A DNA stretch of 64,000 nucleotides, taken from Dehalococcoidia bacterium (GTDB taxonomy: Bacteria; Chloroflexota; Dehalococcoidia; Lucifugimonadales; UBA3495). The notes beneath the pieces were generated by a model. The model saw only the letters and a list, made by a program, of their open reading frames with translations. It was not told where the DNA came from and searched no databases. The position numbers and the translations under genes were made by a program. The stretch is taken from positions 829,276 through 893,275 of the forward strand of contig OZ219860.1 of NCBI GenBank assembly GCA_964291545.2, in the 5' to 3' direction. This document shows positions 31,130 through 63,114 of this stretch, in pieces. Positions within the stretch are counted from its first letter, which is position 1. Every line of letters starts with the position of its first letter.

Positions 31130-31723
31130 ATGGAACCTTTTGTAACGATAAACGGCCTGGTTGCGCCGTTGGACCGGGTAAACGTGGACACCGACCAGAT
31201 TATTCCTGCCGTGTACCTGAAGAGCATCCAGCGGACGGGGTTCGGGGAACACCTCTTTTCTCCCTGGCGTTACCACGCCGACGGGAGCCCCAACCCCGAC
31301 TTCGTGCTGAACAATCCGGCCTACCGGTCGGCGACGGTGCTGGCGACAGGGCGCAACTTCGGCTGCGGTTCGTCCCGGGAGCACGCGCCCTGGGCCCTGG
31401 GAGAATACGGCTTCCGGTGCATCATCGCTCCCAGCTTTGCCGACATCTTCTATAACAACTGCTTCCAGAACGGACTGCTGCCGGTGCGCCTGCCGGAGGA
31501 GGACGTGCGGCGGATCATCGACATGGCTATTGCCAAGCCTGGGATGAGCCTGAACGTGGACCTGGAGAGCCAACGGGTGTGGACCGACGATGGGGAGGTG
31601 TCGGTGTCATTTGAGATAGACGCCGCCCGCCGCCACGCGTTGCTGAATGGCCTAGACGACATCGGGTTGACGTTGCAGCACGAGGACAAGATTGCCGCTT
31701 ACGAGCGGGGGCGGGGGATTTAG
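31130..31723 (+). CDS. leuD: 3-isopropylmalate dehydratase small subunit
   Basis: 197 aa. Swivel-domain motifs [17 protein letters not shown] and [13 protein letters not shown]. Confidence 0.95.
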
Positions 31724-32803: not shown

Positions 32804-34156
32804 TTATTCAATGCCGAAGTGGCGCGCTATTTGTTCCTGGAAATCCACGTCGAAACGCTGGACTCTTCCCTGGCGCACCTGTTCGTCCAAGGGAGGCTGG
32901 ATAGGCGGTTGGGAGGGCGTCGTCGGGGCGTAGCCGATGATGCCCTGTTCTTCCAGGGCCGCCAGTTCGTCGTCGGTGCGGCACAGCAGTTCGCCCAGGA
33001 TCAGCCGGTTGTGCTCTCCCATTGTCGGGGCAGCCTTGTTCGGGACATTAGGGGTAGCAGAGAACTTCCAGGGCTGGCCGGCGTAGGGCAACGGGGGCAT
33101 CTCGGTGCTGGAGTCGTGCTCGACCACCTGGTAGAACTTGCGGTCTTTCAGGTGCTCGTTGAACAACACGTTCTTGGTGTCCAGCACAGCCCCGGCGGCA
33201 ACGCCCTCTGCCTGCAGCAGGTGCATCAACCGGTGTGACTCCCAGCCCTTTGTAGCTTCACCCACCAACCGGTTCAACTCGTCCTGGTTCTCCAACCGAC
33301 CGGCCATGGAAGCGAACCGCCCGTCCTGCAGCCATTCCTCCCGGCCCAGGACCCGGCATAGCGCCTGCCACTGCTGGTCGTCTTGTGCGGCGATGGTGAT
33401 CCACCGGTCGGCGCCGCGGCAGGGATAGCAGCCGTGGGGGGCCATCGACGGATGGCCGTTGCCGACGCGGGGCATGATGCGGCCGTTGACGGCATAGTCC
33501 ATCAGGGCCTCGGGGACGGTGGAACTGGTGGCCTGGGCCTGGGACACGTCGATGAACTGGCCCCGGCCGGTGCGCATGCGGTGCATCAGGGCGGCCATAA
33601 TGGCGAAGACGGTAATCTCCCCGCCGGTGTAGTCGGCGTAGGGTATTTCCGGCTGCACCGGAGGCCCATCCTTGTAGCCGGTCATAAAGGCCAGGCCTGA
33701 AGCGCCCTCGGTGCTGGGCCCGGTGGCCCCGAAGTTGGCCCACGGGCCGGTGAAGCCGTAGCCGGTGGAAGAGACCATGATGATGTCCGGCCTGATCTGG
33801 CGCAGGTCTTCGTATTCCAACTGGAAGTTCTTGATGACCCGGGGGGTGAAATTCTCGGCGAACACGTCGCTGACAGCCACCAGGTCCCGCAGGACGGCAC
33901 GGCCTGCTTCATCCGCCAGGTTCAGGGTGATGCCCAGCTTGTTGCGGTTGTGTTCGTAGAAGAGGCCGCCCCGGTTCCAATACTCGCCGTCCACCTTGTC
34001 CCGGTACAACGTCGACCGGCGGTAGACCTCGAGACGCTGGCAGGACTCCAGGCGTATGACCTGGGCCCCCATGTCGGCAAGCATCTTTATGGACCAGGGA
34101 ATCGCTATAAGCTGGCCCATCTCCAGGATTCTGACGCCCTCCAGCGGTCCAGGCAT
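32804..34156 (-). CDS. Family III CoA-transferase (CaiB/BaiF family)
   Basis: The N-terminus GPLEGVRILEMGQLIAIPW and the overall CaiB-like layout. 450 aa. Confidence 0.85.
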   Translation of the reverse strand: MPGPLEGVRILEMGQLIAIPWSIKMLADMGAQVIRLESCQRLEVYRRSTLYRDKVDGEYWNRGGLFYEHNRNKLGITLNLADEAGRAVLRDLVAVSDVFAENFTPRVIKNFQLEYEDLRQIRPDIIMVSSTGYGFTGPWANFGATGPSTEGASGLAFMTGYKDGPPVQPEIPYADYTGGEITVFAIMAALMHRMRTGRGQFIDVSQAQATSSTVPEALMDYAVNGRIMPRVGNGHPSMAPHGCYPCRGADRWITIAAQDDQQWQALCRVLGREEWLQDGRFASMAGRLENQDELNRLVGEATKGWESHRLMHLLQAEGVAAGAVLDTKNVLFNEHLKDRKFYQVVEHDSSTEMPPLPYAGQPWKFSATPNVPNKAAPTMGEHNRLILGELLCRTDDELAALEEQGIIGYAPTTPSQPPIQPPLDEQVRQGRVQRFDVDFQEQIARHFGIE

Positions 34157-34158
34157 GG

Positions 34159-35370
34159 CTAGATGACCTCCGCGGCCCGCATTTGGGCCAGGTCTTCACC
34201 GGAGTGCCCCAGCCGCTGCCCCAGCACGTCTTCATTGTGCTGTCCCAAGGTCGGGGCCGGACGCCGGGCCTGCCACGGAGGCCCGCTGGTCAGGTAGGGC
34301 GGTCCGGGGTACTTGAGCTTGCCGGCCACCGGATGGTCGATGTCGACGAAGTAGCCGCGGGACTCGAGTTGTTCGTCGGCCAGGACCTCTTCAGGCGATT
34401 GGATCATGCCAAAGATAAAGCGCTTCTTCTGCGCGGCGTAAAACATTTCAGATTTTTTCTTGGTGAGAAATATGCGGTCGAGAATCTGCCCAAGTTCCTC
34501 GGTGTTAACCAGGCGGGCCGTCGGAGTGTTGAACTTGTCGTCGTCCAGTTCGGGGGCGCCGAAGAATTCGACTACGTCCGGCCAGTTCAGGTTGGGGGCG
34601 AGGCTGGGCGTGGGCAAGAGATAGCCGTCGGACACCTTCCTCATCCGCCTCAGGTCGCCGCTGGCCTCGGGGGCGCGGTGGCGCACCGCCCCGGTGTAGG
34701 TGTAGATGTCCACGGCGTCACGCAAGCCGGAGGCGACGCATTCCTGCACGGATACGTCCACGTGCTGGCCTTGCCCGGTGCGCCGCTGATGATACAGGGC
34801 CATCAAGGCGCCGCCGGCCGCGTTGGTGCCGGCGCGGAACTGGGCCTGGTGCAAGGCGTGGAACAACGGCTCCCTCTTGTTTTCGCCGAAGATGTACATC
34901 AGGCCGCCCAGGGCGTACTCGACGATGTCGGTGGCCTTGTAGTCCCGGTAGGGGCCGGTCTGGCCGAAGTTGGAAATGGACACCTGGACCAGCGACGGGT
35001 TCAATTCCTTGAGGGACTGGTAGTCCAGCCCCAGGGAAGGCATGACCCGGGGTGAAAAATTCTCCACCAGGATGTCGGACTGCCTGGCCAGCTCCCTGAC
35101 CATCTCCCGGCCGCGGTCGGACTTGAGGTTCAGGGTGACCCCCATCTTGCTGGTGTTGAGGTACAGGAAGAGCAGGCTGCTGTCCTGGCCGGGCTGGTCG
35201 TGAATCAATGGGGGCATGGCGCGGGCCGGGTCACCCTCGGGCCGTTCGACTTTCACAACTTCCGCGCCGAAGTCGGCGAGCAATTTGGTGCAGTAAGGGC
35301 CGGAAATGTGGTGGGTGAGGTCGAGGACCTTCACCCCTTCTAAAGCTCCGTGAGGGGCTCCGTTAGTCAA
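34159..35370 (-). CDS. Family III CoA-transferase (CaiB/BaiF family)
   Basis: The motifs GALEGVKVLDLTHHISGPYCTKLLADFGAEVVKVERP are canonical. 403 aa. Its stop lies 2 nt before the next gene start. Confidence 0.87.
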   Translation of the reverse strand: MTNGAPHGALEGVKVLDLTHHISGPYCTKLLADFGAEVVKVERPEGDPARAMPPLIHDQPGQDSSLLFLYLNTSKMGVTLNLKSDRGREMVRELARQSDILVENFSPRVMPSLGLDYQSLKELNPSLVQVSISNFGQTGPYRDYKATDIVEYALGGLMYIFGENKREPLFHALHQAQFRAGTNAAGGALMALYHQRRTGQGQHVDVSVQECVASGLRDAVDIYTYTGAVRHRAPEASGDLRRMRKVSDGYLLPTPSLAPNLNWPDVVEFFGAPELDDDKFNTPTARLVNTEELGQILDRIFLTKKKSEMFYAAQKKRFIFGMIQSPEEVLADEQLESRGYFVDIDHPVAGKLKYPGPPYLTSGPPWQARRPAPTLGQHNEDVLGQRLGHSGEDLAQMRAAEVI

Positions 35371-35430
35371 TGCTGACGTCTCCAGATATAAGGTCTAGTG
35401 CACCGGGACCCTGGCTGCGCGGCGATAGCT

Positions 35431-37077
35431 TCAAAACGGCCGCCGGTAAGACGCCTCGGTCTCGGCGGAGGTAATGCACTCCAGCAGGGCCGCCGTTCCG
35501 TCCTGTTCAGTGGCGTGCCGGGCCCGCCGGAAAGCGGGAATGATGTCCGCCGGCCGCTCAATCCGTTCGGCGTAGCCTCCCATGGCCCGGCCCATGTCGG
35601 CGTAGTTGCCGCCCAGGTCCCGGGCGTTGTAAAGCTCGTGGGAAGCGGCCATTATCTGCGTTTCCGCGGCCATGGTGAAGTTGTTCAGCACTACGGTAAT
35701 GATGGGTATGCGGCTTCGGACCGCCGTCTCGAAGTCGAGGCCGGTCATGCCAAAGGCGGCGTCGCCCATGAAATTGACGCAGACTTTCTCCGGCGCGGCG
35801 AGCTTGGCGCCGATGACCAGTCCCAGGCCGGTGCCCAAACCGTGGGACTTTCCCCATCCAAGATAGGTGCGGGGGCCGTTGGACCGGTAAAACGGCATAA
35901 TCTGGTCCCTGGGGCTTCCCGAATCGTGGGTCACTATGGCCTCTTCCGGCGGGACGGCCTGCATGAAATCCCAAATTACCCGGTAGGGGTTTATGGGAGC
36001 GTCGTCATTCGTCAGCTTGGCATGCCACTCCTTTACCCAGGCTTGCCGCTCGACATCTATCTCCCGCTCCGTTGCCAGGTCTTCGCGCCGGCCGTGGCCC
36101 ACTATCTCCCGGCAGGCGTCGATCACCTGCCGCAGCACCAGCTTGGCGTCTCCCAATATGGGGTAATCGACGTCGTAGTCCTTGTTTAAGTCCCTGGCGT
36201 CGTTGGTGGCCTGGATGAGGGTCTTGCCGCCGGGGATATTCATGGACATGCCGTGCTTGGTGAAGCTGCAGCCTATGCCGAAAACGAGATCAGCACGGCT
36301 CATGAAATGGTGCACCGAACCGGACATAACGCCGGAGCCGCTTCCCAGGGATAGCGGATGCACCTCGGGAAAGGCGCTCTTGCCCAGCAAGGTGGTCATC
36401 ACCGGGGCTTTCAGCAACTCGGCAAGCTCCACTAATTCTTCAGTGGCCTCGGCGTACAATACACCCTGGCCGGCGTGGATGACCGGGTACCTCGCGTTGC
36501 AAAGGGCTCTGGCGGCGGCTTCTATGTCCCTGGAATCACCCTGGGACGCCACCGGCCGGCTGGGCCGGTAGTCAAAGGCTTCTTCCGCCACTTCTTCCAT
36601 GGCGACGTCGGTGGGGACCTCCACCAGCACCGGGCCGGAGCGGCCCTGGCGGAGCGCGCCGAAGGCCCGGCGCATGACCTCGCAAACGCGGTTGGGGGAG
36701 TTGATTTGCTCGGCGTGCTTGGTGACCCCGGCAAAGTTGGCCAGGGAGCTGAAGTGGGGCCTGACTCCGGCCCTTTCCCGGGGATGGCCGGTGGGCATGA
36801 ACAGGATTGGCGTGGAGTCGGAATAGGCAGTGGCTACGCCGGCAAAGGCGTTTTCTGCTCCGGGGCCGTACTGCACCGCCGCGACACCCACAGGCCGGCC
36901 GTTGGTGACCCGGCTGAACCCGTCGGCTATGCCGATGCCCACGCGCTCCTGCCGGCAGATAATGGGGCGGATGCCGCCTTTGGCGGTGGACTCCAACACC
37001 GGGGTAGTGGGAAAGCAGCTAAGGTATTCGACGCCCTCTAGTTTCAGTATTTCGGTGATGGCGTCAACTGTGTTCAA
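35431..37077 (-). CDS. Thiamine diphosphate-dependent enzyme (acetolactate synthase / oxalyl-CoA decarboxylase / 2-hydroxyacyl-CoA lyase superfamily)
   Basis: 548 aa with three-domain ThDP architecture and a C-terminal GDAAFGM...NN ThDP-binding motif (GDAAFGMTGLDFETAVRSRIPIITVVLNN). Confidence 0.8.
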   Translation of the reverse strand: MNTVDAITEILKLEGVEYLSCFPTTPVLESTAKGGIRPIICRQERVGIGIADGFSRVTNGRPVGVAAVQYGPGAENAFAGVATAYSDSTPILFMPTGHPRERAGVRPHFSSLANFAGVTKHAEQINSPNRVCEVMRRAFGALRQGRSGPVLVEVPTDVAMEEVAEEAFDYRPSRPVASQGDSRDIEAAARALCNARYPVIHAGQGVLYAEATEELVELAELLKAPVMTTLLGKSAFPEVHPLSLGSGSGVMSGSVHHFMSRADLVFGIGCSFTKHGMSMNIPGGKTLIQATNDARDLNKDYDVDYPILGDAKLVLRQVIDACREIVGHGRREDLATEREIDVERQAWVKEWHAKLTNDDAPINPYRVIWDFMQAVPPEEAIVTHDSGSPRDQIMPFYRSNGPRTYLGWGKSHGLGTGLGLVIGAKLAAPEKVCVNFMGDAAFGMTGLDFETAVRSRIPIITVVLNNFTMAAETQIMAASHELYNARDLGGNYADMGRAMGGYAERIERPADIIPAFRRARHATEQDGTAALLECITSAETEASYRRPF

Positions 37078-37278
37078 CTATTGACTTCCTCTCGGACTCC
37101 ATCTCGCCACGGCCGCCGCAATTCCTCGACCCAAATGTCCAGGCGAAAGGCGGCGGCATGGGCCGAACTGCATGTCTGCGGCGCACCGGGAATTGAGAAC
37201 CGGATAGAGTATATCACGAGGCGAGGCCGGTGACGGCCCCATGGTCCACAGGACGTCGGGCGGGAAATCAGGCTAATC

Positions 37279-38838
37279 TCAGGGTGCGGCGGGGCCTCCG
37301 AAACGGTCTCGCAGGTCTCGTTTCAGCACCTTGCCCATGACGTTCCTGGGGAGTTCGTCGACGAAGACGACAGACCGGGGGCGCTTGAACCCGGCCAGGC
37401 GCGGCGCGCAATGGTCGAGCAGTTCCTCTTCGTTCAAGTCCTTTGAGTTGGGCACCACCACCGCCCGTACCTCCTCTCCCCATTCGGGGTCGGGAACGCC
37501 GATTACCGCGGCGTCATCGACCATGGGATGGGACCTGAGGACGTTCTCCACCTCTTCCGGAGAGACCATCTCCCCGCCCCGCTTGATGAAGTCCTTGCTC
37601 CTGCCGGACAGGTATATGTAGTCGTCTTCGTCCCGGTAGCCAAGGTCGCCGGTATAGACCCAGCCGGAGCGCAGGATTTCCCGGGTGACGCTTTCCTCCT
37701 GCCAGTACCCGGCCATCATGCGGCCGCCGCGGGCGACAATCTCGCCTGTTTCGCCGGCGGGCAATGGGCTGCCGCCTTCGTCGACGATTTGCACCTCGAC
37801 GTCGTCCAAAGGCCGGCCAATGGACGTGAGCCTGCGCAGCTTGGTCTCGATTTCTTCAGGGCTGCCTTCCAAGACATGGTCTTCGGGGGGCAGCATGGTT
37901 ATGGTGGAGGCGGTCTCGGTCTGGCCGAAGGCGTTGATGAAGCGGGCGCCGGGAAACTCTTGGATGGCCCGCCTGATGACTTCCAGGGGCATCGACGCCC
38001 CGCCGTAGGTGATGACGTCCAGGGAGGACAGGTCGAAGTCGTGGAATTGGGGATGGTCCATCAATTGCTTGAGCATGGTGGGCACGATCATGGCCCGGTT
38101 GACCCGTTGCTGCTGCACCAAGGTCAGCCACTCCACCGGGTCGAACTGGCGCATGACCACCATGGTGCGGCCGCCATAGACCGCGGCCAGGACAGCCTGA
38201 AAGCCGGCGACGTGGTAGAGGGGAACGGTGAGCAGGTTGCTTTCCTCGATGTCCGGGTCCGCCGGGGTCACCGCCGTCAACAGGTACGACGAGAAGCTGT
38301 CGTGGGTCAGCATCACACCCTTGGGCGCGCCGGTGGTGCCTGCAGTGAACATAATGATGGTGGTATCGCCGTCGTCCGCCTCTGGGAAGTGGAGTTCGTC
38401 GTCCGATGCTCCGGCCAGCAGTTCTTCATAGCCGGCGCCTGCCTCGCCGGGCTTGCCGTCCAGGACGACAACGTGCGCAGGGATTACTCCCGGGGCTGCG
38501 TCCAGCAGCGGCAAATAGCGCTGCCCCACGAACATGATGCCGGGCTGGGCCTGGGAGAGCATCTGGGCCAGTTCTTCTTCCTTGGCGCGGAAGTTGATGG
38601 GAACGAATACGGCGTCTAACTGGGCGGCGGCGAAGTAGACCTCGATGGCCTGGGGGCAGTTGACCTGCATCACCGCCACGCGGTCGCCCCTGCCGATTCC
38701 CAGGCCGGCCATGGCGTTGGCCAGACGGTTGGCCCTCTGCTGGAGTTCGGCGAAGGAGAGGGAGGCGCCGTCGAAATATACGGCGGTGCGGTCGCGCACG
38801 ATGGCGCCGGCTATTGTGAGAAATTCGCTAGTCCGCAT
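37279..38838 (-). CDS. AMP-dependent acyl-CoA synthetase/ligase
   Basis: Motifs IMFTAGTTGAPKGV (AMP-binding motif I), YGQTE-like FGQTETAS, and GWVYTGDLGYRDEDDYIYLSGRSKD. Confidence 0.87.
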   Translation of the reverse strand: MRTSEFLTIAGAIVRDRTAVYFDGASLSFAELQQRANRLANAMAGLGIGRGDRVAVMQVNCPQAIEVYFAAAQLDAVFVPINFRAKEEELAQMLSQAQPGIMFVGQRYLPLLDAAPGVIPAHVVVLDGKPGEAGAGYEELLAGASDDELHFPEADDGDTTIIMFTAGTTGAPKGVMLTHDSFSSYLLTAVTPADPDIEESNLLTVPLYHVAGFQAVLAAVYGGRTMVVMRQFDPVEWLTLVQQQRVNRAMIVPTMLKQLMDHPQFHDFDLSSLDVITYGGASMPLEVIRRAIQEFPGARFINAFGQTETASTITMLPPEDHVLEGSPEEIETKLRRLTSIGRPLDDVEVQIVDEGGSPLPAGETGEIVARGGRMMAGYWQEESVTREILRSGWVYTGDLGYRDEDDYIYLSGRSKDFIKRGGEMVSPEEVENVLRSHPMVDDAAVIGVPDPEWGEEVRAVVVPNSKDLNEEELLDHCAPRLAGFKRPRSVVFVDELPRNVMGKVLKRDLRDRFGGPAAP

Positions 38839-38844
38839 TGTGTT

Positions 38845-39564
38845 TCATAGGGCCTGGACAGCCAGCATGGACTCGGTCTGCAGCGCATCAGCCAGGGGCA
38901 GGTCGGCCCCCCTTTGCAGGGTCTGTTTGGCCGCGGCAGCCAGCCGGGGTTCCAGGGCGGCCAGCCGGCGGCAGAGTTCCCAGGCCTGGTCGAGCAACTC
39001 CTCGTCGGGGGTCACCCGTGTAAGCAGGCCCAGTGACAGGGCTTCTTCCGCTCCAATGCGGCGGCCGGTGAGCAGCAAGTCCAGGGCGGACGACCAACCG
39101 GCGATTCTCGGGACCGTTTGGGTGCCCCCAGCCGCGGGTATCATGCCAAGCTGGACCTCGGGCATGGCGAAGACGGCGCTCTCTGCGCCGATGCGGATGT
39201 CGCTGAGGAGCGCTATTTCAATTCCAGACCCGATGCAGTAACCGTGGATTGCGGCTACCACCGGTACGGGTACGGCCAGAAGCTGGCCCCAAACGTCGCG
39301 CTCCCAGCGAACGCGGCGGGCAACCGTCTGGGACGGCGCTGTTCCGAACTCGGTCAGGTCTGCCCCGGCGCAGAAGGCCCTTCCCTGGCCGGTAATCAGC
39401 AAGCTTCTAACGCCGTGATCGTCGTGCACCGCAGCGAGGGCTTGGGAAAAGTCGTCCCGCATTTGGATGTTGTATGCGTTCAGGACTTCCGGACGGTCCA
39501 ACGAGATGTGGGCCACGGGGCCTTGCTTCTCGTACACGAGTGTTTCGAAACCGGTCATGGACAT
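38845..39564 (-). CDS. Enoyl-CoA hydratase/isomerase (crotonase) family protein
   Basis: Motifs HISLDRPEVLNAYN and AFCAGADL, plus the oxyanion-hole segment AIHGYCIGSGIEIALLSDIRI. Confidence 0.85.
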   Translation of the reverse strand: MSMTGFETLVYEKQGPVAHISLDRPEVLNAYNIQMRDDFSQALAAVHDDHGVRSLLITGQGRAFCAGADLTEFGTAPSQTVARRVRWERDVWGQLLAVPVPVVAAIHGYCIGSGIEIALLSDIRIGAESAVFAMPEVQLGMIPAAGGTQTVPRIAGWSSALDLLLTGRRIGAEEALSLGLLTRVTPDEELLDQAWELCRRLAALEPRLAAAAKQTLQRGADLPLADALQTESMLAVQAL

Positions 39565-39567
39565 GCT

Positions 39568-40128
39568 CTAGCTGGAGACCGAACCTGCGACGGAATCGTC
39601 AGCCCTGCGGTACAGGTCTTCCAATTCCACTTCGGTGTAGCGCAATCCGATGTTTTCCAGGTTGTGGGCGTCGCTGACTTCGAGGACCAGCAGGTCGTGT
39701 TCCCCGGCGACCTCCAACACCCGGCTCTTGCGAATGTGCCAGTTGTGTATGTAGTTGTCGATTTCTATGGCGTGAACACCGTCCTCTATGATGATGTCCG
39801 GGGAGTAGTACCCCGGATGGCAGTAGCTGCGAAAAGTGCCCCCGCCGGGCAGGAACAACTCGGCGATCTGGTATTCAGAGAAGGGGTTTTGGGACGGCCG
39901 GACTTCGATTTCCCAGCCGGGGATGATGATGACCTCACCGGGGTATTTTTCCTCCACCAGGTCCCGGAACTTGAAGGCCCACTCCTTGTCGTTGTGGTCG
40001 GTGACCGCCAAGCCGTCTATGCCCCGGTCCTTGATCCTGGCCACCACCTGCTCGGCCATGGCCGGGGTGGGGTCCTGGAAGCTAAAGGCTTCCCAGATGT
40101 GGGTATGTAAGTCCAGCTTGACCTTCAC
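39568..40128 (-). CDS. PHP-domain-like metal-dependent phosphoesterase family protein
   Basis: LDLHTHI...GIDGLAVTDHND...H..., the PHP His/Asp pattern. 186 aa. Confidence 0.5.
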   Translation of the reverse strand: MKVKLDLHTHIWEAFSFQDPTPAMAEQVVARIKDRGIDGLAVTDHNDKEWAFKFRDLVEEKYPGEVIIIPGWEIEVRPSQNPFSEYQIAELFLPGGGTFRSYCHPGYYSPDIIIEDGVHAIEIDNYIHNWHIRKSRVLEVAGEHDLLVLEVSDAHNLENIGLRYTEVELEDLYRRADDSVAGSVSS

Positions 40129-40176: not shown

Positions 40177-41016
40177 CTATTCTCCCCTGAATTCAGGCCG
40201 GCGACGCTCCAAAAACGAGTTGATTCCTTCGGCCCTGTCGTCGGTTTCGTATAGTAGCATGTTCAGGTCCGCTTCCAGGCGCAACCCTTGGGCAAGCGTG
40301 ACGTCTAAGCCCTTCTTCACCGCTTCCTTGGCATAGCCGGCGGCGATGGGAGCGCCGGCTACGATGTTCTCCACCAGCTTGTCCGCCTGCGGCCAAAGCT
40401 CTTCTTTAGCGAACACCCTGTTGACCAACCCGATCTTCAGGGCCTCCGCGGCGGGAACCACCCGCCCAGTAAGAATCATATCACTGGCCCGGCCTGGGCC
40501 AACCAGGCGGGGCAGCCGCTGGGTGCCGCCGTCCCAGGGGAATACGCCGTTGGCAAGGTCGTTCAAGGCGAACCGCGCTTCTTCCGAGGCAATCCTGAGG
40601 TCGGCCGCCAGGGCCAACTCCATCCCGTGGTCGAAGGCGTCCCCTTCCACCATAGCAACGACGGGAATGGACAATTCAGCCACAGCCGACGCTACTTGCA
40701 TTCGAGACAACCAGCCAGCGAGATCCGCTCCGCCTTGCGCTAGCAGGTCCGGAGGGGGGCTGGTCCGCCCCAATGAGAAGACGCCGCCGGAGCCGGCGAC
40801 GATGAGCAGGCGAATGCCCTCGTCCTGGGAAACAGCCGCGCACAACTCTTTCAACTCGGCGGCCGTCTCGGCGTCGATGCGGTTGCCGGCTGCAGGGTTG
40901 GTCAGCCTGACCGTCGCGACGGAGTTATCCCGCTGAAAGTCCAGCGTTTCGTACTTGATTTGGGCACGCTCCAAGCCGGCAGACTGTCCGGGCGAAGTGG
41001 TGTCAAACGCCAACAT
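40177..41016 (-). CDS. Enoyl-CoA hydratase/isomerase (crotonase) family protein
   Basis: [15 protein letters not shown]...VFSLGRT...[24 protein letters not shown]. The start codon is uncertain within the first ~20 aa. Confidence 0.8.
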
Positions 41017-41151: not shown

Positions 41152-43105
<1,954 letters not shown>

Positions 43106-43133
43106 TCCCCTATAGTCCTGTCTTGGGATTGGA

Positions 43134-43165
43134 TGGGGCGCGGCGTGCCGCGCCCCATTTCTTTT
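43134..43165 (+). terminator. Intrinsic terminator after groEL
   Basis: TGGGGCGCGGC-gt-GCCGCGCCCCA followed by TTTCTTTT. Confidence 0.7.
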
Positions 43166-43392: not shown

Positions 43393-44127
43393 ATGCAGTC
43401 TGCGCCGGACAACGGCCCTCCGGGCCCTTCAAGAACGGACAAAGTGTGCTCTTCCGCAACCGTCGCGCTGGGCGGAATTTCCCAGGGAGCCACGGTGTTT
43501 GTAGCGGGTTTCGCCGGCATCGGATGGCCGGAGACCCTGCTCAAGGCCCTTCACTCCATTGGCGTAGACTCACTCACCTTGGTCTGCCAGGGAGTATGGC
43601 CAAATCCCAAGGGCAATGGACAGGGATCTGATGCCCTGGAAGAATTGGTAGCCTCCGGACGGGTGGCCAAGCTGATTTCTCCGCTCCCGTTCATACCGGG
43701 CAGCGGAGGGGCGGTGGAAGCGAAGTGGCGTTCGGGCGGCGTGGAGTTAGAGGTTGTTTCGCAGGCGGCGCTGGCGGAACGAATCAGGGCCGCCGGCGCG
43801 GGGCTGGGCGGGGTGTTTCTTCCCGTCGGTCCCGGGATCAGGTTCGCAGAAGGCAAAGAGGTCAAATCCCTTGGAGGGCGAGACCACGTGTTGGAGCAAC
43901 CGTTGCGGGCCGACTTCGCCTTGCTGCGGGCCAAGACCGCCGACACCCTGGGCAACACGGTCTACCAAGCCACCCAGCGGAACTGGAACCCCCTGATGGC
44001 CATGGCCGCGCAGACCACCGCAATAGAGGTGGACAACGTTGTGGAACCCGGGGCAATGGACCCCGAGCAGGTCATCACACCCGGTATCTTCATCGACCGC
44101 GTAGTACAGACGGAACAAGGGCGCTGA
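43393..44127 (+). CDS. Class I (3-oxoacid) CoA-transferase alpha-subunit-like protein (A1)
   Basis: It aligns by eye along its length with AtoD/ScoA: VFVAGFAGIGWPETLL, LEVVSQAALAERIRAAGAGLGGVFLPVGPG, ADFALLRAKTADTLGNTVYQATQRNWNPLMAMAA and ITPGIFIDRVV. The start codon is uncertain. Confidence 0.75.
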   Translation: MQSAPDNGPPGPSRTDKVCSSATVALGGISQGATVFVAGFAGIGWPETLLKALHSIGVDSLTLVCQGVWPNPKGNGQGSDALEELVASGRVAKLISPLPFIPGSGGAVEAKWRSGGVELEVVSQAALAERIRAAGAGLGGVFLPVGPGIRFAEGKEVKSLGGRDHVLEQPLRADFALLRAKTADTLGNTVYQATQRNWNPLMAMAAQTTAIEVDNVVEPGAMDPEQVITPGIFIDRVVQTEQGR

Positions 44128-44154
44128 GGACTCGCCGAGGAAGTCTCTAGGAAC

Positions 44155-45585
44155 ATGGCTGCGAAAGAACGGATAGACGTTCAACGGCTGGCCCGCAGGG
44201 CGGCGCAAGAATTTCGCGCCGGAGAGGTGGTTGGCCTGGGGCCTGGGATGCCTTCGCTGATCCCTAACCATGTCCCAGCCGGCTGGGGAGTCTGGTTCCT
44301 GGCCGACAGCGGCGCCCTTGGCTTCAGGGCTGCCAACGGCGCGCCTACTCCGGATTCGCATAACCCCAGCGGCCCGGTGGACTCCAACGGCCAGCCCGCA
44401 GCCTTCATACCTGGGGGGTCGACGCTAAGCACGGTTGATTTAGCAGGCCTGATACACGCTGGCTACGTGGACGCCGCGGCGCTGCAACCGGCTTTTGTCA
44501 CTCCCTCCGGAGACTTTACCCACTGGACCACGGCGGCCACTCCCGGGCTGTTTTCGCCGTCCTCGGCAGTCGAGTTGGCCGCCTGCTCCGGGCGGGTGAT
44601 AGCGATGCTCCCCCACACCGGCGGGGACGGGTCACCCGCCATTGTGGACTCGCACACTCTCCCCCTGGACGGGGTGGGCTGCGTAGGCACGGTGATTACC
44701 GACGCGGCGGTGTTCAGCATCACCGGCGTGGGCCTTACGCTGCTTGAGGTTGCGCCGGGTTGGAATGTTGACGACGTTGCCGCTATAACCAACGCCCCCT
44801 TTCAAGTCTCCCCGGAAGTCCGGGAGATGAGCTTCGACCTGCCGGACTTGAAGTTTCCCAACAAGGTCTGCGAAAGCGGCCTCGAGGCGATACGAGACCT
44901 GCCAGACAATGCCGTGGTAAACGTCGACGGCTTCGGCGGCCCGGGCGGCATGGCCCACTACCTGCTTACGTCCCTGGCGAACCAAGGGGCCAGGGGACTG
45001 ACGATTATCAGCAACACCGTCGGCATCGCCCGGGTGGCGGGGTTCGGGTCGCCTCCCGGCCTCCAGGCCATAGACCACAGCATCCTTGTCGACGCTGGTC
45101 AAGTGGCGAAGGGCATTGCTTCGTTCCCGGTGTCGCCCAGGGTATCCAGGCCTAACTCCTTCGAAATGGCCTACCAGCGGGGCGACGTGGAATTGCAGCT
45201 GGTCCCACAGGGCACCCTAGCCGAACGGCTCCGGGCCGGCGGCGCAGGGGTGGGCGCCTTCTACACGCCCACCGGGGCCGGCACCCTGTTGGCTGAGGGC
45301 AAGGAGACCCGCACAATAGACGGCAGGGACTACGTACTGGAGACGGGACTGAAAGCCGATTTCTGCTTGATCCGGGGTCACAAGGCCGACACCCTGGGCA
45401 ACGTGGTATACCAGGGCACGTCACGCAACTTCAACGCCGTCATGGCCCCGGCGGCACGGATTACCGTCGTAGAGGTGGACGAGATTGTGGAGCCCGGCGC
45501 ACTGGGACCTGAAGAAATTGTCACTCCCGGCATCTACGTTGACCGGATAGTGCAGCGTCCTGCCGGTTTTTCTCCTTACGAGTAG
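44155..45585 (+). CDS. Fusion protein: degenerate CoA-transferase beta-like N-terminal half (B1) plus alpha-like C-terminal half (A2)
   Basis: The first ~235 aa resemble AtoA/ScoB (RLARRAAQEFRAGEVVGLGPGMPSLIPNHVP...LADSGALG). Residues ~240-476 resemble AtoD/ScoA (VNVDGFGGPGGMAHYLL, LQLVPQGTLAERLRAGGAGVGAFYTPTGAG, ADFCLIRGHKADTLGNVVYQGTSRNFNAVMAPAA). It is a single uninterrupted frame. Confidence 0.7.
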   Translation: MAAKERIDVQRLARRAAQEFRAGEVVGLGPGMPSLIPNHVPAGWGVWFLADSGALGFRAANGAPTPDSHNPSGPVDSNGQPAAFIPGGSTLSTVDLAGLIHAGYVDAAALQPAFVTPSGDFTHWTTAATPGLFSPSSAVELAACSGRVIAMLPHTGGDGSPAIVDSHTLPLDGVGCVGTVITDAAVFSITGVGLTLLEVAPGWNVDDVAAITNAPFQVSPEVREMSFDLPDLKFPNKVCESGLEAIRDLPDNAVVNVDGFGGPGGMAHYLLTSLANQGARGLTIISNTVGIARVAGFGSPPGLQAIDHSILVDAGQVAKGIASFPVSPRVSRPNSFEMAYQRGDVELQLVPQGTLAERLRAGGAGVGAFYTPTGAGTLLAEGKETRTIDGRDYVLETGLKADFCLIRGHKADTLGNVVYQGTSRNFNAVMAPAARITVVEVDEIVEPGALGPEEIVTPGIYVDRIVQRPAGFSPYE

Positions 45586-45685
45586 TGACCGGTTGGACAA
45601 TTGCAGATATGATTCGACGATGCCAATCTACCGGGGTTTTATCCCGCCCGTCTCCTACCGCAGGGCAGGGTCTCGATAAACAGCA

Positions 45686-46363
45686 ATGAGCGCAGCGCCC
45701 AATAAAGAACGCCTGGACCGGGAAGTCATCGCGATGAGGGTGGCCAAAGAGCTGCCCGACGGCGCCTTTGTCAATCTGGGCATCGGCATTCCGACCCTGG
45801 TATCCAACTTCCTGCCGGAGGACAGGACGGTCTTCTACCACAGCCAAAGCGGCGTTCTGAACTGCGGGCCTCTGGCCGACGAAGGGGAAGAAGACATCGA
45901 CCTCATCAACGCCGGCGGGCAGTTCCTGCAACCCACCCCGGGAATGGCATACTTCAGTTCCGCCGAGGCCTTCGCCATGATCCGCGGCGGCCACGTGGAC
46001 GTCACCGTCCTGGGGGCGCACCAAGTCTCGGCCAAGGGAGACCTGGCCAACTGGCTGCTGCCACAGAGGGGAGTGGGCAACGTGGGCGGGGCAATGGACC
46101 TGGCCGCCGGCGCGAAGACCGTCATCGTAGCCATGGAGCACACCGACCGCAAGAACCAACCCAAGATTGTCGAGGAGTGCACCTTCCCCATTACCGGCAA
46201 GGGGTGCGTGTCCCTTGTAGTGACCGACCTGGCGGTAATCGAGCGGACCGATCAGGGACTGGTCTTGAAAGAGGTGGCTCCCGGTTGGAGCCCCGAAGAG
46301 GTGCACCAGCTTACCGGCGCGAGGCTGATTCCGGCCCCAGACCTGACGGAATACCATCTTTAA
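45686..46363 (+). CDS. Class I CoA-transferase beta-subunit-like protein (B2) with Gln in place of the catalytic Glu
   Basis: Close by-eye match to AtoA: VAKELPDGAFVNLGIGIPTLVSNFLPE, LINAGGQ, MIRGGHVDVTVLGAHQVSAKGDLANW, NVGGAMDL. The SENG motif reads SQSG. Confidence 0.8.
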   Translation: MSAAPNKERLDREVIAMRVAKELPDGAFVNLGIGIPTLVSNFLPEDRTVFYHSQSGVLNCGPLADEGEEDIDLINAGGQFLQPTPGMAYFSSAEAFAMIRGGHVDVTVLGAHQVSAKGDLANWLLPQRGVGNVGGAMDLAAGAKTVIVAMEHTDRKNQPKIVEECTFPITGKGCVSLVVTDLAVIERTDQGLVLKEVAPGWSPEEVHQLTGARLIPAPDLTEYHL

Positions 46364-46516
46364 GAGTAGCGGTGGCCTGGCGGCTTGAAACGCGAGTCAC
46401 TGCAACTGCCAAGAGAGACATTGGGCGAGGGTAGAAAATACTTTCGCGCCTGATAGTGACCAATGCGCCATTTCCGGCGGCGCTGGTGGCCATGACAACC
46501 CTATAGCGGGTTTCAC

Positions 46517-47506
46517 TCAGTTACAGCCTACCGCCTGCAAAAACTCCGGAGATTCCACCACTTCGCCCGTGGTGGCGCTCAACTCGCGGACCTTCCACAC
46601 TGGCGGAGTTTGCGATTCATCCCAGCTTCGCTTGACGGGTGACTCTGCAGTCACTTGCCATATTCTGTCGCCGAGGTAGTCGGTGGTGTAGCCGCTGTGA
46701 GGATTGGTGTCACCCATAAACGTCCTGCAGGTAACGGTGGACTCATCGGGCCAGGTATTGTCCAGGTGGTCCCATACGATCTGGATGGCAGCGCCATGGG
46801 GAAGAAGCGGTATGTTCGGGTCTAACGGCTTTTCCGTGGGTTCTTCTGTCGGCACAGACGGGGGTAAGGCAATCTGCACTGTGACCACGTTGGTTTGGCC
46901 GATACCCCCAAAGGTTATTTCAGACTTCGAGCCGTCCGTGGCGGTGATGAGTCCCGTTACAGGTTTTCCCAGCGAGTCAATTACGATGCTGCTACTCAGC
47001 GTTACACCCCTTACCGTGCGTGGAGCAAAGGCGAGAGTCCGTAGATTCCCCGTTGCCCCTGACCCATCGTCTGGCCTCTCTGTGGCCGATTCCGGGTCGC
47101 CGCAGGGTAGGTGGCCAGTATCTAACTCAAGCGATTCGGCGCGTATCTCCCACGCTGCCCAGGTGTTCGGGCCGGTCTTATAGCGCTCGTACCATACGCC
47201 GTCCTTGACGATCCACTCGGCGCGAAAGTCGTGGGGGCCGTTAGGGTTGTAGTTTCCTGCTAGAAGCCTGAAATCTCGTCCGGCGAAGGTGTATTGCCGA
47301 ACGTAGATGTTGTCATCGCCCGACCTGGTCTCCTTAGCCGTCATGTCAAAGTGAGCGTCTTCCAGGCTTTTACATGCGACCTGAGCGAGCGCCGCCGCTC
47401 CCACGGCTGTTGGGCCTGTCTTTGCAAACAGCAGCCACAACCCTGCCGCCAAAGCCGCCAGGACCACCACCGTTCCGATGCCTATGTATCGAACTCTTCT
47501 GCTCAT
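46517..47506 (-). CDS. Hypothetical membrane-anchored/secreted protein (329 aa)
   Basis: N-terminal TM/signal anchor (IGIGTVVVLAALAAGLWLLFA). Long clean ORF in a lower-GC segment. I recognise no family. Confidence 0.5.
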   Translation of the reverse strand: MSRRVRYIGIGTVVVLAALAAGLWLLFAKTGPTAVGAAALAQVACKSLEDAHFDMTAKETRSGDDNIYVRQYTFAGRDFRLLAGNYNPNGPHDFRAEWIVKDGVWYERYKTGPNTWAAWEIRAESLELDTGHLPCGDPESATERPDDGSGATGNLRTLAFAPRTVRGVTLSSSIVIDSLGKPVTGLITATDGSKSEITFGGIGQTNVVTVQIALPPSVPTEEPTEKPLDPNIPLLPHGAAIQIVWDHLDNTWPDESTVTCRTFMGDTNPHSGYTTDYLGDRIWQVTAESPVKRSWDESQTPPVWKVRELSATTGEVVESPEFLQAVGCN

Positions 47507-47679
47507 GCGGAACCAGTTCTACTTGTACCCAGTAAATCAGTATAGGGATTGTCAAATAAGGTTTGGGTAAGGTCAACCCCGAAAATGATAAGAAAGCGAT
47601 AAGTTTCGGGCCAATTTGCTAGAATCGGCCTAAATCGGCCCGTTTCGAGGAGGCGAAAGTTGGAGAACGCAGGCCCGCC

Positions 47680-47803
47680 GTTACCGGGAGGAGAGGACCG
47701 GCCGGGGACTGAGGTGGCTCCCGGCTGGAGACCCGAAGAGGTGCAGCGGCTTACCGGCGCCAGGCTGATTCCGGCCCCAGACCTGACGGAATACCATCTC
47801 TAG
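47680..47803 (+). pseudogene. Remnant of the 3' end of a paralogous CoA-transferase beta gene
   Basis: 47711-47803 matches 46271-46363 at 86/93 nt and ends in a stop at the equivalent codon (EVAPGWRPEEVQRLTGARLIPAPDLTEYHL-stop). Patchy similarity continues about 30 nt upstream with a 10-nt deletion, and about 80 nt downstream. Confidence 0.6.
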
Positions 47804-47934
47804 ACATGCGGGCCAGGCGGCTCAAAGCCCGGGGCTTCTGCCTACAACGATTCCGGTAAGGGCGAAAAATCTTTCGCCTTTACGACGGCGTCGACTCCGA
47901 AATTTTAAGCCGATTTCGACGGCAATATTTGCCC

Positions 47935-47964
47935 TTGACAGCACAAATTTGGACGTTGTACGAT
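47935..47964 (+). promoter_or_regulatory. Promoter candidate for the His/Cys-repeat gene
   Basis: TTGACA (47935-47940), an 18-nt spacer, then TACGAT (47959-47964). Confidence 0.35.
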
Positions 47965-47991
47965 GAACTATCACACTGGAGGTTAGAGCGA

Positions 47992-48231
47992 ATGCAGCTT
48001 CACGATGTACACGAGTGCGACACCCACGAGCACCACGGCGACGAGCCCGGCCACGTACACGACCCCCACGAGTGCGACACCCACGAGCACCACGCCGAGG
48101 CCCACGACCACAGTTCCCACGAGTGCGACACCCATGAGCACCACGGCGACGAGCCCGGCCACGTGCACGACCCCCACGAGTGCGACGACCACGAGCACCA
48201 CGAGCACGAACACGCGGGCCACGTCCACTAG
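47992..48231 (+). CDS. Small His/Cys-rich repeat protein (79 aa), putative metal-binding
   Basis: The ATG at 47992 has GGAGG 9 nt upstream (47978-47982). It carries four HECD(T/D)HEHH modules and an internal 108-bp (36-codon) duplication (48010 vs 48118). It ends at a strong terminator. The first 21 codons of the 47929 ORF in the track overlap the promoter candidate. Confidence 0.5.
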
Positions 48232-60434: not shown

Positions 60435-61397
60435 ATGCCCCTCGACAGGGCCACCGTTAAATTTCTGGCACAACTGCCTGAATCCGGCGGAAAGCCTCTG
60501 AACGAATGCACCCCGCAAGAGGTCCGGGCTTTAGGGCCCATCTGGGCCGAATTCAACGGGCCGGCTCCGGAAATGACGCGGGTCGAAGAGCACACAATCC
60601 CAACGCCTGATGGCCAAGTCCCCATCCGGGTCCTGGTCCCGAACCCGCATCCCCTGGGGGTGCTGGTCTACTACCACGGCGGCGGATGGGTCGCCGGTTC
60701 CATCGACGAGTCCGACACCATGGCCAGGAAAATTGCGGAGCGAACGTCTTGCGCTCTGGTCCTGGTCGAGTACCGGCTGGCGCCGGAGCATCCCTATCCC
60801 GCGGCGGTGGACGACTCTTACGCCGCCTTGGAATGGGTCGGCAGCCACCGGGGCGATATTGCCTGGCATGACGCCCCGCTGATGGTCGCCGGCGATAGCG
60901 CCGGGGGAAACCTGGCCGCGGTGATGGCCCTGCGAGCCCGCGACCGCGGCGGGCCCGACATAGCCTTGCAGGTGCTCATATACCCGGTCACCGACGCCGA
61001 TTTCAGCCGCCCTTCCTACGACGATTCTGGCGCAGGCCCCTACAGCGACCAGTTGCTTTCCCGTGAAGCCATGGTCTGGTACTGGGACCACTACCTGCCG
61101 GACCCTTCCCGCCGTACCGAGCCGGACGCATCACCTTTGCGGGCAAGCGATTTTTCGGGCCTCCCTCCGGCTGTTATACTGACCGCAGAGCACGACGTGT
61201 TGCGAGACGAGGGCGAGGCCTACGCCGAGGCCCTGCAGGCCGCCGGCGTGCCGGTGGACTTCAAGAGATACCCCGGCCAGATGCACGGGTTCTTTACCAC
61301 GCTGGCGCTGCCCGGCAGCGAGTTGGGCTTCCAACAGGTCGTGGTTGCGGTGAGGGCATGTATTGCCAGGGAGCGCAAGGCTCGCCGGTTTCGATAG
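60435..61397 (+). CDS. Alpha/beta hydrolase, hormone-sensitive-lipase-type esterase
   Basis: HGGGW oxyanion motif (YYHGGGWVAGS), GDSAGGNLA nucleophile elbow, and a late DVLRDE...H triad region. AGGAGG RBS. Confidence 0.85.
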   Translation: MPLDRATVKFLAQLPESGGKPLNECTPQEVRALGPIWAEFNGPAPEMTRVEEHTIPTPDGQVPIRVLVPNPHPLGVLVYYHGGGWVAGSIDESDTMARKIAERTSCALVLVEYRLAPEHPYPAAVDDSYAALEWVGSHRGDIAWHDAPLMVAGDSAGGNLAAVMALRARDRGGPDIALQVLIYPVTDADFSRPSYDDSGAGPYSDQLLSREAMVWYWDHYLPDPSRRTEPDASPLRASDFSGLPPAVILTAEHDVLRDEGEAYAEALQAAGVPVDFKRYPGQMHGFFTTLALPGSELGFQQVVVAVRACIARERKARRFR

Positions 61398-61467
61398 CAA
61401 GCATCCCGCCAATGGCCGCCGGCCGTTGGCCCAAAGTTCCCGGACGACAACCAGCTAGGGAGGCCAT

Positions 61468-63114
61468 ATGGCTATCTCGGGCGACTCCCCGGACTTCGAT
61501 GCAGTCATAATAGGGGCCGGCTTTTCGGGCCTGGGGATGCTCCACCGGCTGCGCAACGAACTGGGCATGTCGGTCCAGGTGTACGAGTCCGCCGGCGGCG
61601 TGGGCGGCACCTGGTACTGGAACCGGTACCCGGGGGCCCGCTGCGACTCCCTGAGCTACCTCTACTGCTACTCGTTCTCCAAAGAGTTGCTCCAGGAATG
61701 GAATTGGACCGGCAAGTACCCGGAACAGCCGGAGATTCTGAACTACTTCGAGCACGTCGCCGACCGCTTTGACCTGCGCCGCGACATCAAGCTGAACACC
61801 CGGGTCACCTCCGCAAAGTTCCTCGAAGCCGATAATCTATGGCGAATCCAGACGGACCAGGGCGACCAAGTAACGGCCCGGCACTTGATTACCGCCGTCG
61901 GGTGTCTCTCCACGGCCAACGTCCCTGAATTCAAGGGGTCGGACTCATTTGCAGGCGAGTCGTACCACACCGGCGGCTGGCCCCACGAGGGCGTGGACTT
62001 TGCCGGGAAGCGAGTGGCGGTCATCGGCACCGGGTCCAGCGGCGTGCAGGCTATACCGGTGATTGCCCAGCAGGCTGGGAGCGTAATGGTATTCCAGCGC
62101 ACTGCCCAGTACACCGTACCCGCCCGCCACCACACCGTCGACCCCAAGTTCATTAACGAGGTGGTGAAGCCCAACTACGATAAGATCCTGGAAGACGCCA
62201 GGTGGTCCCTGGGCGGCACTCCCATTGAAGAGCCCGAGCGCTCCGCGCTGGACGTAACCGCCGGAGAGCGGCGGGAAATCTATGAAGCCGGCTGGGCCGA
62301 AGGCGGCGGCTACTTCATATTCTCCTTCAACGATACCTATCACGACCGGAGAGCCAACGACACCGTCAGCGAGTTCATCCGGTCCAAGATCCGGGAGACG
62401 GTCAAAGACCCCGAGACCGCGGAAAAGCTTCTGCCGGTGGACCATCCATTTGGTTCCAAGCGCGCCCTTATAGATACCGACTACTTCGAGACCTACAACC
62501 GCGACAACGTGAAACTGGTCGACATCCGCCACTCCCCAATTCAAGAGATCACCCCCAAGGGCATACGGACCGAGGACGAAGAGTACCAATTCGACGTCAT
62601 TGTCTTCGCCACCGGCTTCGACGCCATGACGGGCAGCTACTTCAAGATCGACATCCGCGGCAAAAACGGCCTGCCCCTGAAAGACAAGTGGGCCGAGGGG
62701 CCCAAGACATATCTCGGCGTGCAGACCGCCGGATTCCCCAACATGTTCATGATTACCGGGCCTGGCAGCCCCTCCGTTCTCAGCAACATGTCCATGTCCA
62801 TCGAGCAGCACATCGAGTGGATTTCCAACCTGCTGGACTACATGCGGGAACACGAAATCGAGACCGCCGAGCCGGACGCCGATGCGGAGACCGCCTGGGG
62901 AGAGCACCTAAACGAACTCGCAGAGCAGACCCTTTACCCGCTGGCCAACTCCTGGTACCTGGGCGCCAACATCCCCGGCAAGCCCCGGGTGTTCACGCCC
63001 TACGCCGGCGGCGTGGGGACCTACCGGAAAAAGTGCAACGAGGTGGCCGACGCGGGCTACGAGGGCTTCATCTTCGGCCCAGAGAAGGAACCAGCCGCAA
63101 AGCCAGGGGCATAA
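61468..63114 (+). CDS. Baeyer-Villiger (cyclohexanone-type) flavin monooxygenase
   Basis: GAGFSGLG FAD motif, the BVMO fingerprint FAGESYHTGGWP (FxGxxxHxxxWP), and the second Rossmann motif GTGSSGVQ. 548 aa. Confidence 0.9.
   Translation: MAISGDSPDFDAVIIGAGFSGLGMLHRLRNELGMSVQVYESAGGVGGTWYWNRYPGARCDSLSYLYCYSFSKELLQEWNWTGKYPEQPEILNYFEHVADRFDLRRDIKLNTRVTSAKFLEADNLWRIQTDQGDQVTARHLITAVGCLSTANVPEFKGSDSFAGESYHTGGWPHEGVDFAGKRVAVIGTGSSGVQAIPVIAQQAGSVMVFQRTAQYTVPARHHTVDPKFINEVVKPNYDKILEDARWSLGGTPIEEPERSALDVTAGERREIYEAGWAEGGGYFIFSFNDTYHDRRANDTVSEFIRSKIRETVKDPETAEKLLPVDHPFGSKRALIDTDYFETYNRDNVKLVDIRHSPIQEITPKGIRTEDEEYQFDVIVFATGFDAMTGSYFKIDIRGKNGLPLKDKWAEGPKTYLGVQTAGFPNMFMITGPGSPSVLSNMSMSIEQHIEWISNLLDYMREHEIETAEPDADAETAWGEHLNELAEQTLYPLANSWYLGANIPGKPRVFTPYAGGVGTYRKKCNEVADAGYEGFIFGPEKEPAAKPGA

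Follow-up and report, generated by a model that had tools for sequence, protein, structure and literature searches.

A four-module member of the class I CoA-transferase family in Dehalococcoidia, with a β–α fusion and a clade carrying glutamine at the catalytic glutamate position

A 64,000-nucleotide stretch of DNA from a Dehalococcoidia bacterium (GenBank assembly GCA_964291545.2, contig OZ219860.1, positions 829,276 to 893,275; hereafter the window) carries three co-directional open reading frames (ORFs) on the + strand that encode proteins of the class I coenzyme A (CoA) transferase family. An earlier note on this DNA, made from the letters alone, had placed three CoA-transferase genes here, had read the 476-aa middle protein as a β-like and an α-like half in one frame, and had proposed that the products form a heteromeric, IpdAB-like ring-cleaving enzyme that is not a transferase. 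The ORFs lie where that note had put them and their Pfam and NCBIfam matches agree with its gene assignments, the middle protein matching a subunit B model and then a subunit A model. We refer to the four modules, in gene order, as A1, B1, A2 and B2:

43393..44127, + strand: A1, stand-alone α module and the faster-evolving α (244 aa; TIGR02429, 224 bits)
44155..45585, + strand: B1–A2 fusion ORF (476 aa)
44155..44844, + strand: B1, degenerate β module, N-terminal half of the fusion (TIGR02428, 125 bits, under the cut-off)
44845..45585, + strand: A2, canonical α module, C-terminal half of the fusion (TIGR02429, 240 bits)
45686..46363, + strand: B2, canonical β module, intact apart from its nucleophile (225 aa; TIGR02428, 283 bits)

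Pfam CoA_trans (PF01144) is matched by A1, by B2 and, in two stretches, by the B1–A2 fusion. The NCBIfam model for subunit A (TIGR02429, curated cut-off 128.5 bits) gives 224.3 bits with A1 and 239.6 bits with fusion residues 236–467 (A2), both above the cut-off, and the model for subunit B (TIGR02428, curated cut-off 243.55 bits) gives 282.8 bits with B2, likewise above. Fusion residues 10–217 (B1) reach 124.6 bits with TIGR02428, below the cut-off, and we therefore regard B1 as a degenerate family member. In phmmer searches against solved transferases, B2 matches CtfB (PDB 9csc, chain B) with E=1.9e-66. Judged by these sequence matches, A1, B1, A2 and B2 all belong to the 3-oxoacid (ScoAB/PcaIJ/AtoDA/SCOT) branch of the class I CoA-transferases, the same family as ScoAB, PcaIJ, AtoDA and CtfAB (TIGR02429/TIGR02428; PDB 3cdk, 3rrl, 5dbn, 9csc).

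Residue-by-residue alignment to solved transferases finds the catalytic glutamate absent from both β modules of the window, with Gln in B2 and Asp in B1 as the earlier note had claimed, and inspection of the codons agrees:

45845..45847, + strand: Gln54 of B2, at the catalytic-Glu position, codon CAA (phmmer alignment; codon checked)
44305..44307, + strand: Asp51 of B1, at the catalytic-Glu position, codon GAC (alignment to SCOT 4kgb; codon checked)
46085..46099, + strand: GGAMD motif of B2, kept (motif inspection)

By phmmer, the B2 segment 'fyhsQsgvl' aligns on 'ffqsEngii' of Thermosipho CtfB (9csc_B), and the B1 segment 'fladsgalg' aligns on 'mlqsEngilg' of Drosophila SCOT (4kgb). The NLGIG and GGAMD motifs are both present in B2, whereas B1 has GLGPG, LADSG and SSAVE in place of NLGIG, ENG and GGAMD, so the contrast drawn earlier between a kept GGAMDL in B2 and its loss from the fused β module stands. 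Throughout the window's family B1 shows distinctive conserved motifs ([AG]LGPG[LM]P, [AS][DE]SG and P[GAS]SAVD), from which the Asn of NLGIG and the second Gly of GGAMD are gone. Among 120 family members its catalytic position holds Asp in 88, Glu in 30 and Gly in 2, and Asn is seen at locus L002. The earlier description of B1 is thus right in that Asp replaces Glu and the GGAMDL-type motif has disappeared, but the position is not 'lost', a carboxylate being conserved in 118 of the 120. Orthologues of B2 carry Y-H-S-E-S-G at residues 51–56 (window positions 45836–45853) where Q-S-E-N-G is usual; His52 and Ser55 of B2 are invariant in 120 of 120 sequences.

Replacement of Glu54 in B2 is restricted to one shallow clade. 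In a set of 140 B2 orthologues (sequences of at least 205 aa) Glu occupies position 54 in 129 and Gln in 11, the fragment P0254 bringing the Gln-bearing count to twelve. Among the best 120 B2 matches there were 119 Glu and 1 Gln; the Gln-bearing sequences emerged when the 90% clusters of the nearest relatives were opened. All 11 form a single clade nested among Glu-bearing sisters, indicating one origin, and the changes in B2 that define this clade are E54Q and one at residue 47 only. Wherever DNA was available for a Gln-bearing locus (four cases: the window, L086, L092 and L093), codon 54 reads CAA; the Glu-bearing sister L087 has GAA there. A compensating Glu was sought in B1 of the Gln-bearing clade and not found, Asp standing there in the clade and in its Glu-bearing sister alike. 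Assemblies from ENA, NCBI and Logan yield at least 12 distinct Gln-bearing B2 sequences, one of them on the 1.13-Mb contig to which the window belongs. L092 and L093 have their CAA codons on further megabase contigs (2.6 Mb and 1.53 Mb) that come from different samples, at a synonymous divergence (dS) of about 0.35–0.55 from the window's B2. These independent megabase contigs and the at least 12 sequences rule out CAA as a sequencing error.

The Gln-bearing B2 is under strong purifying selection. Within the clade (window, L092 and L093) the ratio of non-synonymous to synonymous divergence (dN/dS) of B2 is 0.06–0.11 at a dS of 0.35–0.56, which is the tightest constraint of the four modules and is indistinguishable from comparisons with the Glu-bearing sister. 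At columns conserved in at least 95% of sequences, the window's B2 departs at three positions only (E54Q, I178V and Q207H). The low dN/dS and the small number of deviations indicate that the gene is in use and that the pocket around residue 54 is constrained.

The β–α fusion is a family feature as well. Full-length relatives of the fusion make up more than 120 protein clusters at 59–87% identity from Chloroflexota/Dehalococcoidia assemblies, a spread that rules out a fusion created by a lost stop codon and so disposes of the sequencing-induced stop loss that the earlier note had wanted checked. The order A1-[B1–A2]-B2 is unvarying in all 16 related loci examined (these include L001–L003, L081–L084, L086, L087 and L090–L093); L001–L003 came from a profile scan of genome contigs with the fusion alignment and further loci from exact-protein look-ups. 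In L082 (2534–2899, on a 2.4-Mb contig) A1 is called as 121 aa only, which may be a frameshift, a truncation or an assembly error. Between the two halves of the fusion lies a short conserved junction:

44827..44868, + strand: ordered B1→A2 junction, MSFDLPDLKFPNKV, conserved in the family and in distant fusions

Junction residues M225, F227 and K237 are invariant or nearly so, their segment has a predicted local distance difference test (pLDDT) score of 94–97 in a model of B1–A2, and a homologous junction is found in the protein P0265. Two natural triple fusions join further modules: P0413 (L088, 4001–6097, 698 aa) is a B1–A2–B2 fusion with a separate A1 upstream, and P0415 (L089, 3877–5976, 699 aa) is an A1–B1–A2 fusion with a separate B2 downstream. 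All four modules are always present in a single order and can be joined at any of three junctions. This constancy, together with the natural fusions, provides strong Rosetta-stone evidence that A1, B1–A2 and B2 are parts of one heteromeric enzyme derived from a duplicated A–B operon, and the heteromer proposed earlier is upheld by the unvarying order in 16 loci, the triple fusions and the structure model alike. By the sequence criteria used here, a four-module CoA-transferase of order A1-B1-A2-B2 is conserved in Chloroflexota/Dehalococcoidia. In the searchable literature neither a β→α fusion nor a four-module architecture nor a natural ScoB lacking its nucleophile was found described, in keeping with the earlier remark that the covalent β–α linkage is undescribed.

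A sister family of β→α fusions, sitting at the same groESL-linked locus, came to light when 1.84 billion representative proteins were scanned with HMMER and a distant match was then used to search for homologues. Both of its β sites are canonical (B1 NLGIG..HSENG..GGALD; B2 NLGIG..HSESG..GGAMD). The related genomes thus display a stepwise series, from the sister family with both sites canonical, through the window's family with B1 degenerate and Glu kept in B2, to the subclade with HSQSG in B2. With Glu in 129 of 140 B2 orthologues and HSENG also in B1 of the sister family, the loss of Glu is not a trait of the enzyme, as the earlier note had read it.

The four modules differ in how well they have been preserved. 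Identity to deep orthologues is 70–81% for A2 and 75–80% for B2, compared with 48–65% for A1 and 41–57% for B1. Canonical positions are kept at 54 of 59 in A2, where all changes at canonical α positions are conservative, and at 64 of 72 in B2, compared with 44 of 59 in A1 and 36 of 72 in B1. Values of dN/dS are 0.19–0.30 for A1 and about 0.2 for B1, against 0.09–0.11 for A2 and 0.06–0.11 for B2, and A1/B1 have evolved at about double the pace of A2/B2. Modelled with AlphaFold2, the B1–A2 fusion is compact (pLDDT 88.9, predicted template modelling score (pTM) 0.87), and in Foldseek searches with this model PDB chains match a single domain at a time. The SCOT-like packing was examined on a model of one homologue, P0413, built from an unpaired alignment including α→β fusions. 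It has a pLDDT of 91.3 and a pTM of 0.91 with disorder in the A2→B2 linker only, and entire SCOT chains can be overlaid on it across about 490 columns with a template modelling (TM) score of 0.85–0.90 and 40% identity. From the model, the evolutionary rates and the fusions we infer that A2·B2 is a SCOT-like protomer to which B1 would be tethered by the ordered junction; with A2·B2 modelled in this way, A1·B1 would be the second protomer.

Comparison with known enzymes shows where this arrangement departs from its relatives. In CtfAB the acyl-CoA site and the Glu lie on the β subunit and the acid pocket on the α subunit at the heterodimer interface, and the tetramer consists of two αβ heterodimers (PMC12400318). 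The likeness to CtfAB-type enzymes lies in this active site built by an αβ heterodimer and in the (αβ)2 tetramer plan, and A2 and B2 keep about 90% of the positions canonical for ScoAB-type enzymes. Unlike ScoAB-type enzymes, which contain two copies of one pair, the window encodes two non-identical αβ pairs; the β module of pair 1 is covalently fused to the α module of pair 2, pair 1 is degenerate, and the nucleophilic Glu of pair 2 is Gln in the window's subclade. Covalently joined α and β modules are shared with SCOT/OXCT1, trypanosome ASCT and YdiF-type enzymes, and the A2–B2 part of P0413 superimposes on SCOT (TM 0.85–0.90) with a disordered linker in both. Those enzymes, however, run α→β, whereas the fusion here runs β→α through a short, ordered and conserved junction, and by the model it would join two different protomers where the fusion in SCOT joins two halves of one.

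The catalytic position itself has been altered experimentally in engineered CtfB (E46D, E46S and E46A; PDB 9cq2, 9cry) and in glutaconate CoA-transferase (βE54D), the Asp of B1 being comparable to the E→D change. By contrast with the engineered mutants, the substitutions described here are natural, fixed and under selection. The CtfB E46A and E46S mutants are inactive and the E→D mutant is an acyl-CoA hydrolase, not a transferase (PMC12400318); the passage of that paper citing Mack & Buckel 1997 gives βE54D of glutaconate CoA-transferase as an acyl-CoA hydrolase too. No published E→Q phenotype was retrievable from the literature.

The genomic surroundings of the unit comprise conserved neighbours and genes particular to this region:

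41155..43105, + strand: groES–groEL, upstream neighbour in all related loci (groES about 41155–41442; groEL 41477–43105)
43131..43160, + strand: intrinsic-terminator-like hairpin 3′ of groEL (13-bp stem with 9 GC pairs, then a T-run)
40177..41016, − strand: crotonase (ECH_1), divergent neighbour (Pfam match; also in L086, L087, L090, L091 and L093)
32804..40128, − strand: CoA-ester cluster (two class III CoA-transferases, a thiamine diphosphate-dependent enzyme of 548 aa, an acyl-CoA ligase, a crotonase and a small PHP-domain protein)
60435..63114: Baeyer–Villiger monooxygenase (BVMO) and esterase, a separate unit

The terminator-like hairpin separates groESL from the three-gene unit, and thiG-thiE-thiS lies downstream of the cluster in most related loci. 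Among the catabolic genes that the earlier note had named as a fitting context (crotonases, ligase, BVMO and esterase), the divergent crotonase is the sole recurrent neighbour, and any functional link to the CoA-transferase unit is putative. The cluster with the ligase, the thiamine pyrophosphate enzyme and the class III transferases and the BVMO/esterase pair are separate units 3–15 kb away. As they are not conserved beside the unit in related genomes, we reject a functional link to either; the neighbours that are conserved are groES–groEL and thiG-thiE-thiS, and the proposed fit to the surrounding catabolic genes falls away. The CoA-ester cluster at 32804–40128 is probably the catabolic context that was meant; upstream of it, at 29532–31723, lie the large and small subunits of an aconitase-family hydratase (LeuCD/IPMI-like).

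The 3′ flank of B2 has a history of its own. About 90 bp of the B2 3′ end, including the stop codon, is duplicated (46274–46366 and 47711–47803, 1.4 kb downstream), and the distal copy keeps the ancestral CAG (Gln207). The flank of this copy matches the L086 sequence downstream of B2 and the intervening segment is absent from L086 and L087, so that the segment (about 46364–47710) looks like a lineage-specific insertion at the B2 end; it holds a 329-aa ORF (46517–47506, − strand) with no Pfam match. Between B2 and thiG lies a His/Cys/Asp-rich repeat ORF ('HECDTHEHH...', 47929–48231, + strand), adjoined by a cation-efflux (CDF) gene (48345–49643, − strand). The CDF gene occupies the same place in L086, L087 and L092 and is absent from L093, a member of the Gln-bearing clade, and from deeper orthologous loci, where thiG comes straight after B2.

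We propose a model for this system that we hold, as a whole, to be slightly better than an even bet. Tandem duplication of an A–B operon would have produced the order A1-B1-A2-B2, and fusion of the two genes in the middle would have followed. The product would be one asymmetric pseudo-(αβ)2 class I CoA-transferase of the 3-oxoacid branch, in which A2 and B2 form the SCOT-like catalytic protomer, B2 contributing the acyl-CoA site and the nucleophile, and A2 the acid pocket. A1 and B1 would form the second protomer, which has degenerated in the window's family and would have a structural, regulatory or changed function, and the short ordered B1→A2 junction would hold the protomers together as a 1:1 heterocomplex with one canonical and one altered site. 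The family at large would carry out ping-pong CoA transfer through a glutamyl-CoA thioester on Glu54 of B2. In the window's subclade a single GAA→CAA change would have turned Glu54 into Gln and then become fixed, and because nothing else in the A2/B2 site has changed and strong purifying selection acts on it, the site is probably still used. The mechanism that we prefer, tentatively and at less than even odds, is conversion of Gln54 in situ to the glutamyl(-CoA) state, which would leave the enzyme a transferase; it could proceed by thiol attack on the carboxamide with loss of ammonia, or by deamidation. The Cys–Gln thioesters of complement C3 and α2-macroglobulin form through such an attack on the side chain of Gln, ammonia being released. 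An E54Q mutant of glutaconate CoA-transferase is said to have regained activity.

Put more generally, the Gln-bearing clade may be a natural group of enzymes working without a glutamate nucleophile, a possibility that we regard as open to considerable doubt. Gln54 might act as a pro-nucleophile that the first encounter with CoA or acyl-CoA turns into glutamyl-CoA or Glu, or the A2/B2 pocket might host non-covalent chemistry, with Gln54 as a hydrogen-bond donor in hydrolysis, lyase action or isomerisation of a CoA thioester. In both cases the setting would be a four-module complex of lasting asymmetry, with a conserved but altered pseudo-site as its second site. New non-covalent chemistry in the intact pocket, an IpdAB-like reaction included, seems improbable when taken separately.

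Several points weigh against a self-repairing transferase and lead to the alternatives. Its main weakness is that Gln arose once in 140 sequences when harmless self-repair should recur, and this single origin argues that Gln54 is not freely neutral. The Gln-bearing clade also has changes at otherwise conserved positions of B1 (R101H, G144C and A145S) that could signal a functional shift; A2 of the subclade has the change A320G. The A2·B2 pairing depends on a rate correlation and on an AlphaFold model, from a method trained on SCOT and an unpaired alignment. Moreover, Gln is not a nucleophile, and CtfB is inactive once its Glu has been changed to Ala or Ser (PMC12400318). On that evidence the complex of the Gln-bearing clade could be a catalytically dead pseudo-enzyme, kept for binding or sensing CoA or acyl-CoA or for scaffolding, or an enzyme recently inactivated and not yet decayed. 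With the nucleophile removed by E→Q, B1 already degenerate, further losses at R101H, G144C and A145S and a trajectory of progressive loss, this account has some appeal, but we judge it unlikely: B2 is the most constrained module of the clade, and its dN/dS of 0.06–0.11 over a dS of 0.35–0.56 excludes recent pseudogenisation, while the retained NLGIG, GGAMD and 64 of 72 canonical positions are more than scaffolding would seem to require. The working site could instead be A1/B1, acting as an Asp-based acyl-CoA hydrolase (thioesterase) with A2/B2 as a binding or regulatory partner. E→D changes convert CtfAB and, in the passage cited above, glutaconate CoA-transferase into acyl-CoA hydrolases (PMC12400318), B1 has a carboxylate in 118 of 120 sequences, and it evolves under purifying selection (dN/dS about 0.2). 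Yet B1 has lost the Asn of NLGIG and the second Gly of GGAMD and is down to 36 of 72 canonical positions, the A1/B1 pair evolves at about double the rate of A2/B2, and Asp and Glu swap freely at the position, with Asn or Gly also seen, which makes its precise catalytic role doubtful; we give this arrangement little chance.

Similarly little weight falls on the IpdAB-like non-transferase of the earlier note, a ring-opening (retro-Claisen or retro-aldol) hydrolase or lyase that would act on a cyclic β-keto-acyl-CoA with a base other than the β Glu. In IpdA the catalytic base is Glu105, on the α subunit. The window shares with IpdAB (Rv3551/Rv3552; PDB 6co6, 6coj, 6con), the hydrolase that opens the ring of COCHEA-CoA, the class I fold and a β subunit lacking the catalytic Glu. 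IpdAB has Gly at the nucleophile position (IpdB Gly57 in RHA1) and no detected CoA-transferase activity, so the fold does support such chemistry without Glu (PMC5380842). The recurrence of a crotonase and the strong selection on B2 after loss of its nucleophile point the same way. IpdAB, however, falls in another branch of the superfamily and has glutaconate CoA-transferase as a relative (PMC5380842), and Gly57 is a trait of its family, whereas Gln occurs here in one shallow clade only. The IpdA chains 6con, 6coj and 6co6 match A1 with 18.9 bits (E=0.011), compared with 152 bits for AtoD, and IpdB yields no match to B1 even at E<=10. In B2 the loss of Glu is a single substitution in an A2/B2 site that is not otherwise remodelled, and B2 orthologues from the same locus carry Glu, which the sister family has in B1 too. 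The locus does not lie in a steroid/HIP (KstR2-type) catabolic cluster with equivalents of ipdC, ipdF, echA20 and fadA6, nor in a ring-degradation regulon; its conserved neighbours are groES-groEL and thiG-thiE-thiS, and a single crotonase recurs. The IpdAB-like assignment thus fails because sequence membership, Glu loss as a trait and gene context are all negative. What survives of the earlier interpretation is the heteromer and the absence of Glu from both β modules of the window, while ring cleavage of the IpdAB kind and a connection with the nearby catabolic genes find no support. That the Gln codon or the fusion is an artefact of sequencing or assembly is scarcely credible. GAA→CAA is a change of one base, and one of the supporting contigs, L086, was sequenced to 2x coverage and contains many frameshifts, but the Gln-bearing sequences number at least 12 across ENA, NCBI and Logan, CAA recurs on the 2.6-Mb and 1.53-Mb contigs, and more than 120 clusters contain the fusion at full length.

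The enzyme family is therefore an ordinary one, and what is unusual is the fixed two-pair architecture, the graded degeneration of one of its sites and, as far as the sequences tell, a clade-level Glu→Gln replacement under purifying selection. Class I CoA-transferases are covalent-catalysis enzymes built from identical αβ pairs. In this one lineage the homotetramer plan would have become a fixed hetero-complex of two pairs through a β→α fusion, with one site degenerating, and the intermediate states kept in related genomes make it a natural case study in the evolution of pseudo-active sites and asymmetric enzymes. A nucleophile replaced under strong selection offers a test case for Gln maturing to Glu versus new pocket chemistry. 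Database names for these proteins are generic ('3-oxoacid CoA-transferase subunit A/B'), and such annotation hides both the four-module architecture and the missing nucleophile in metabolic reconstructions of Dehalococcoidia/SAR202-type bacteria.

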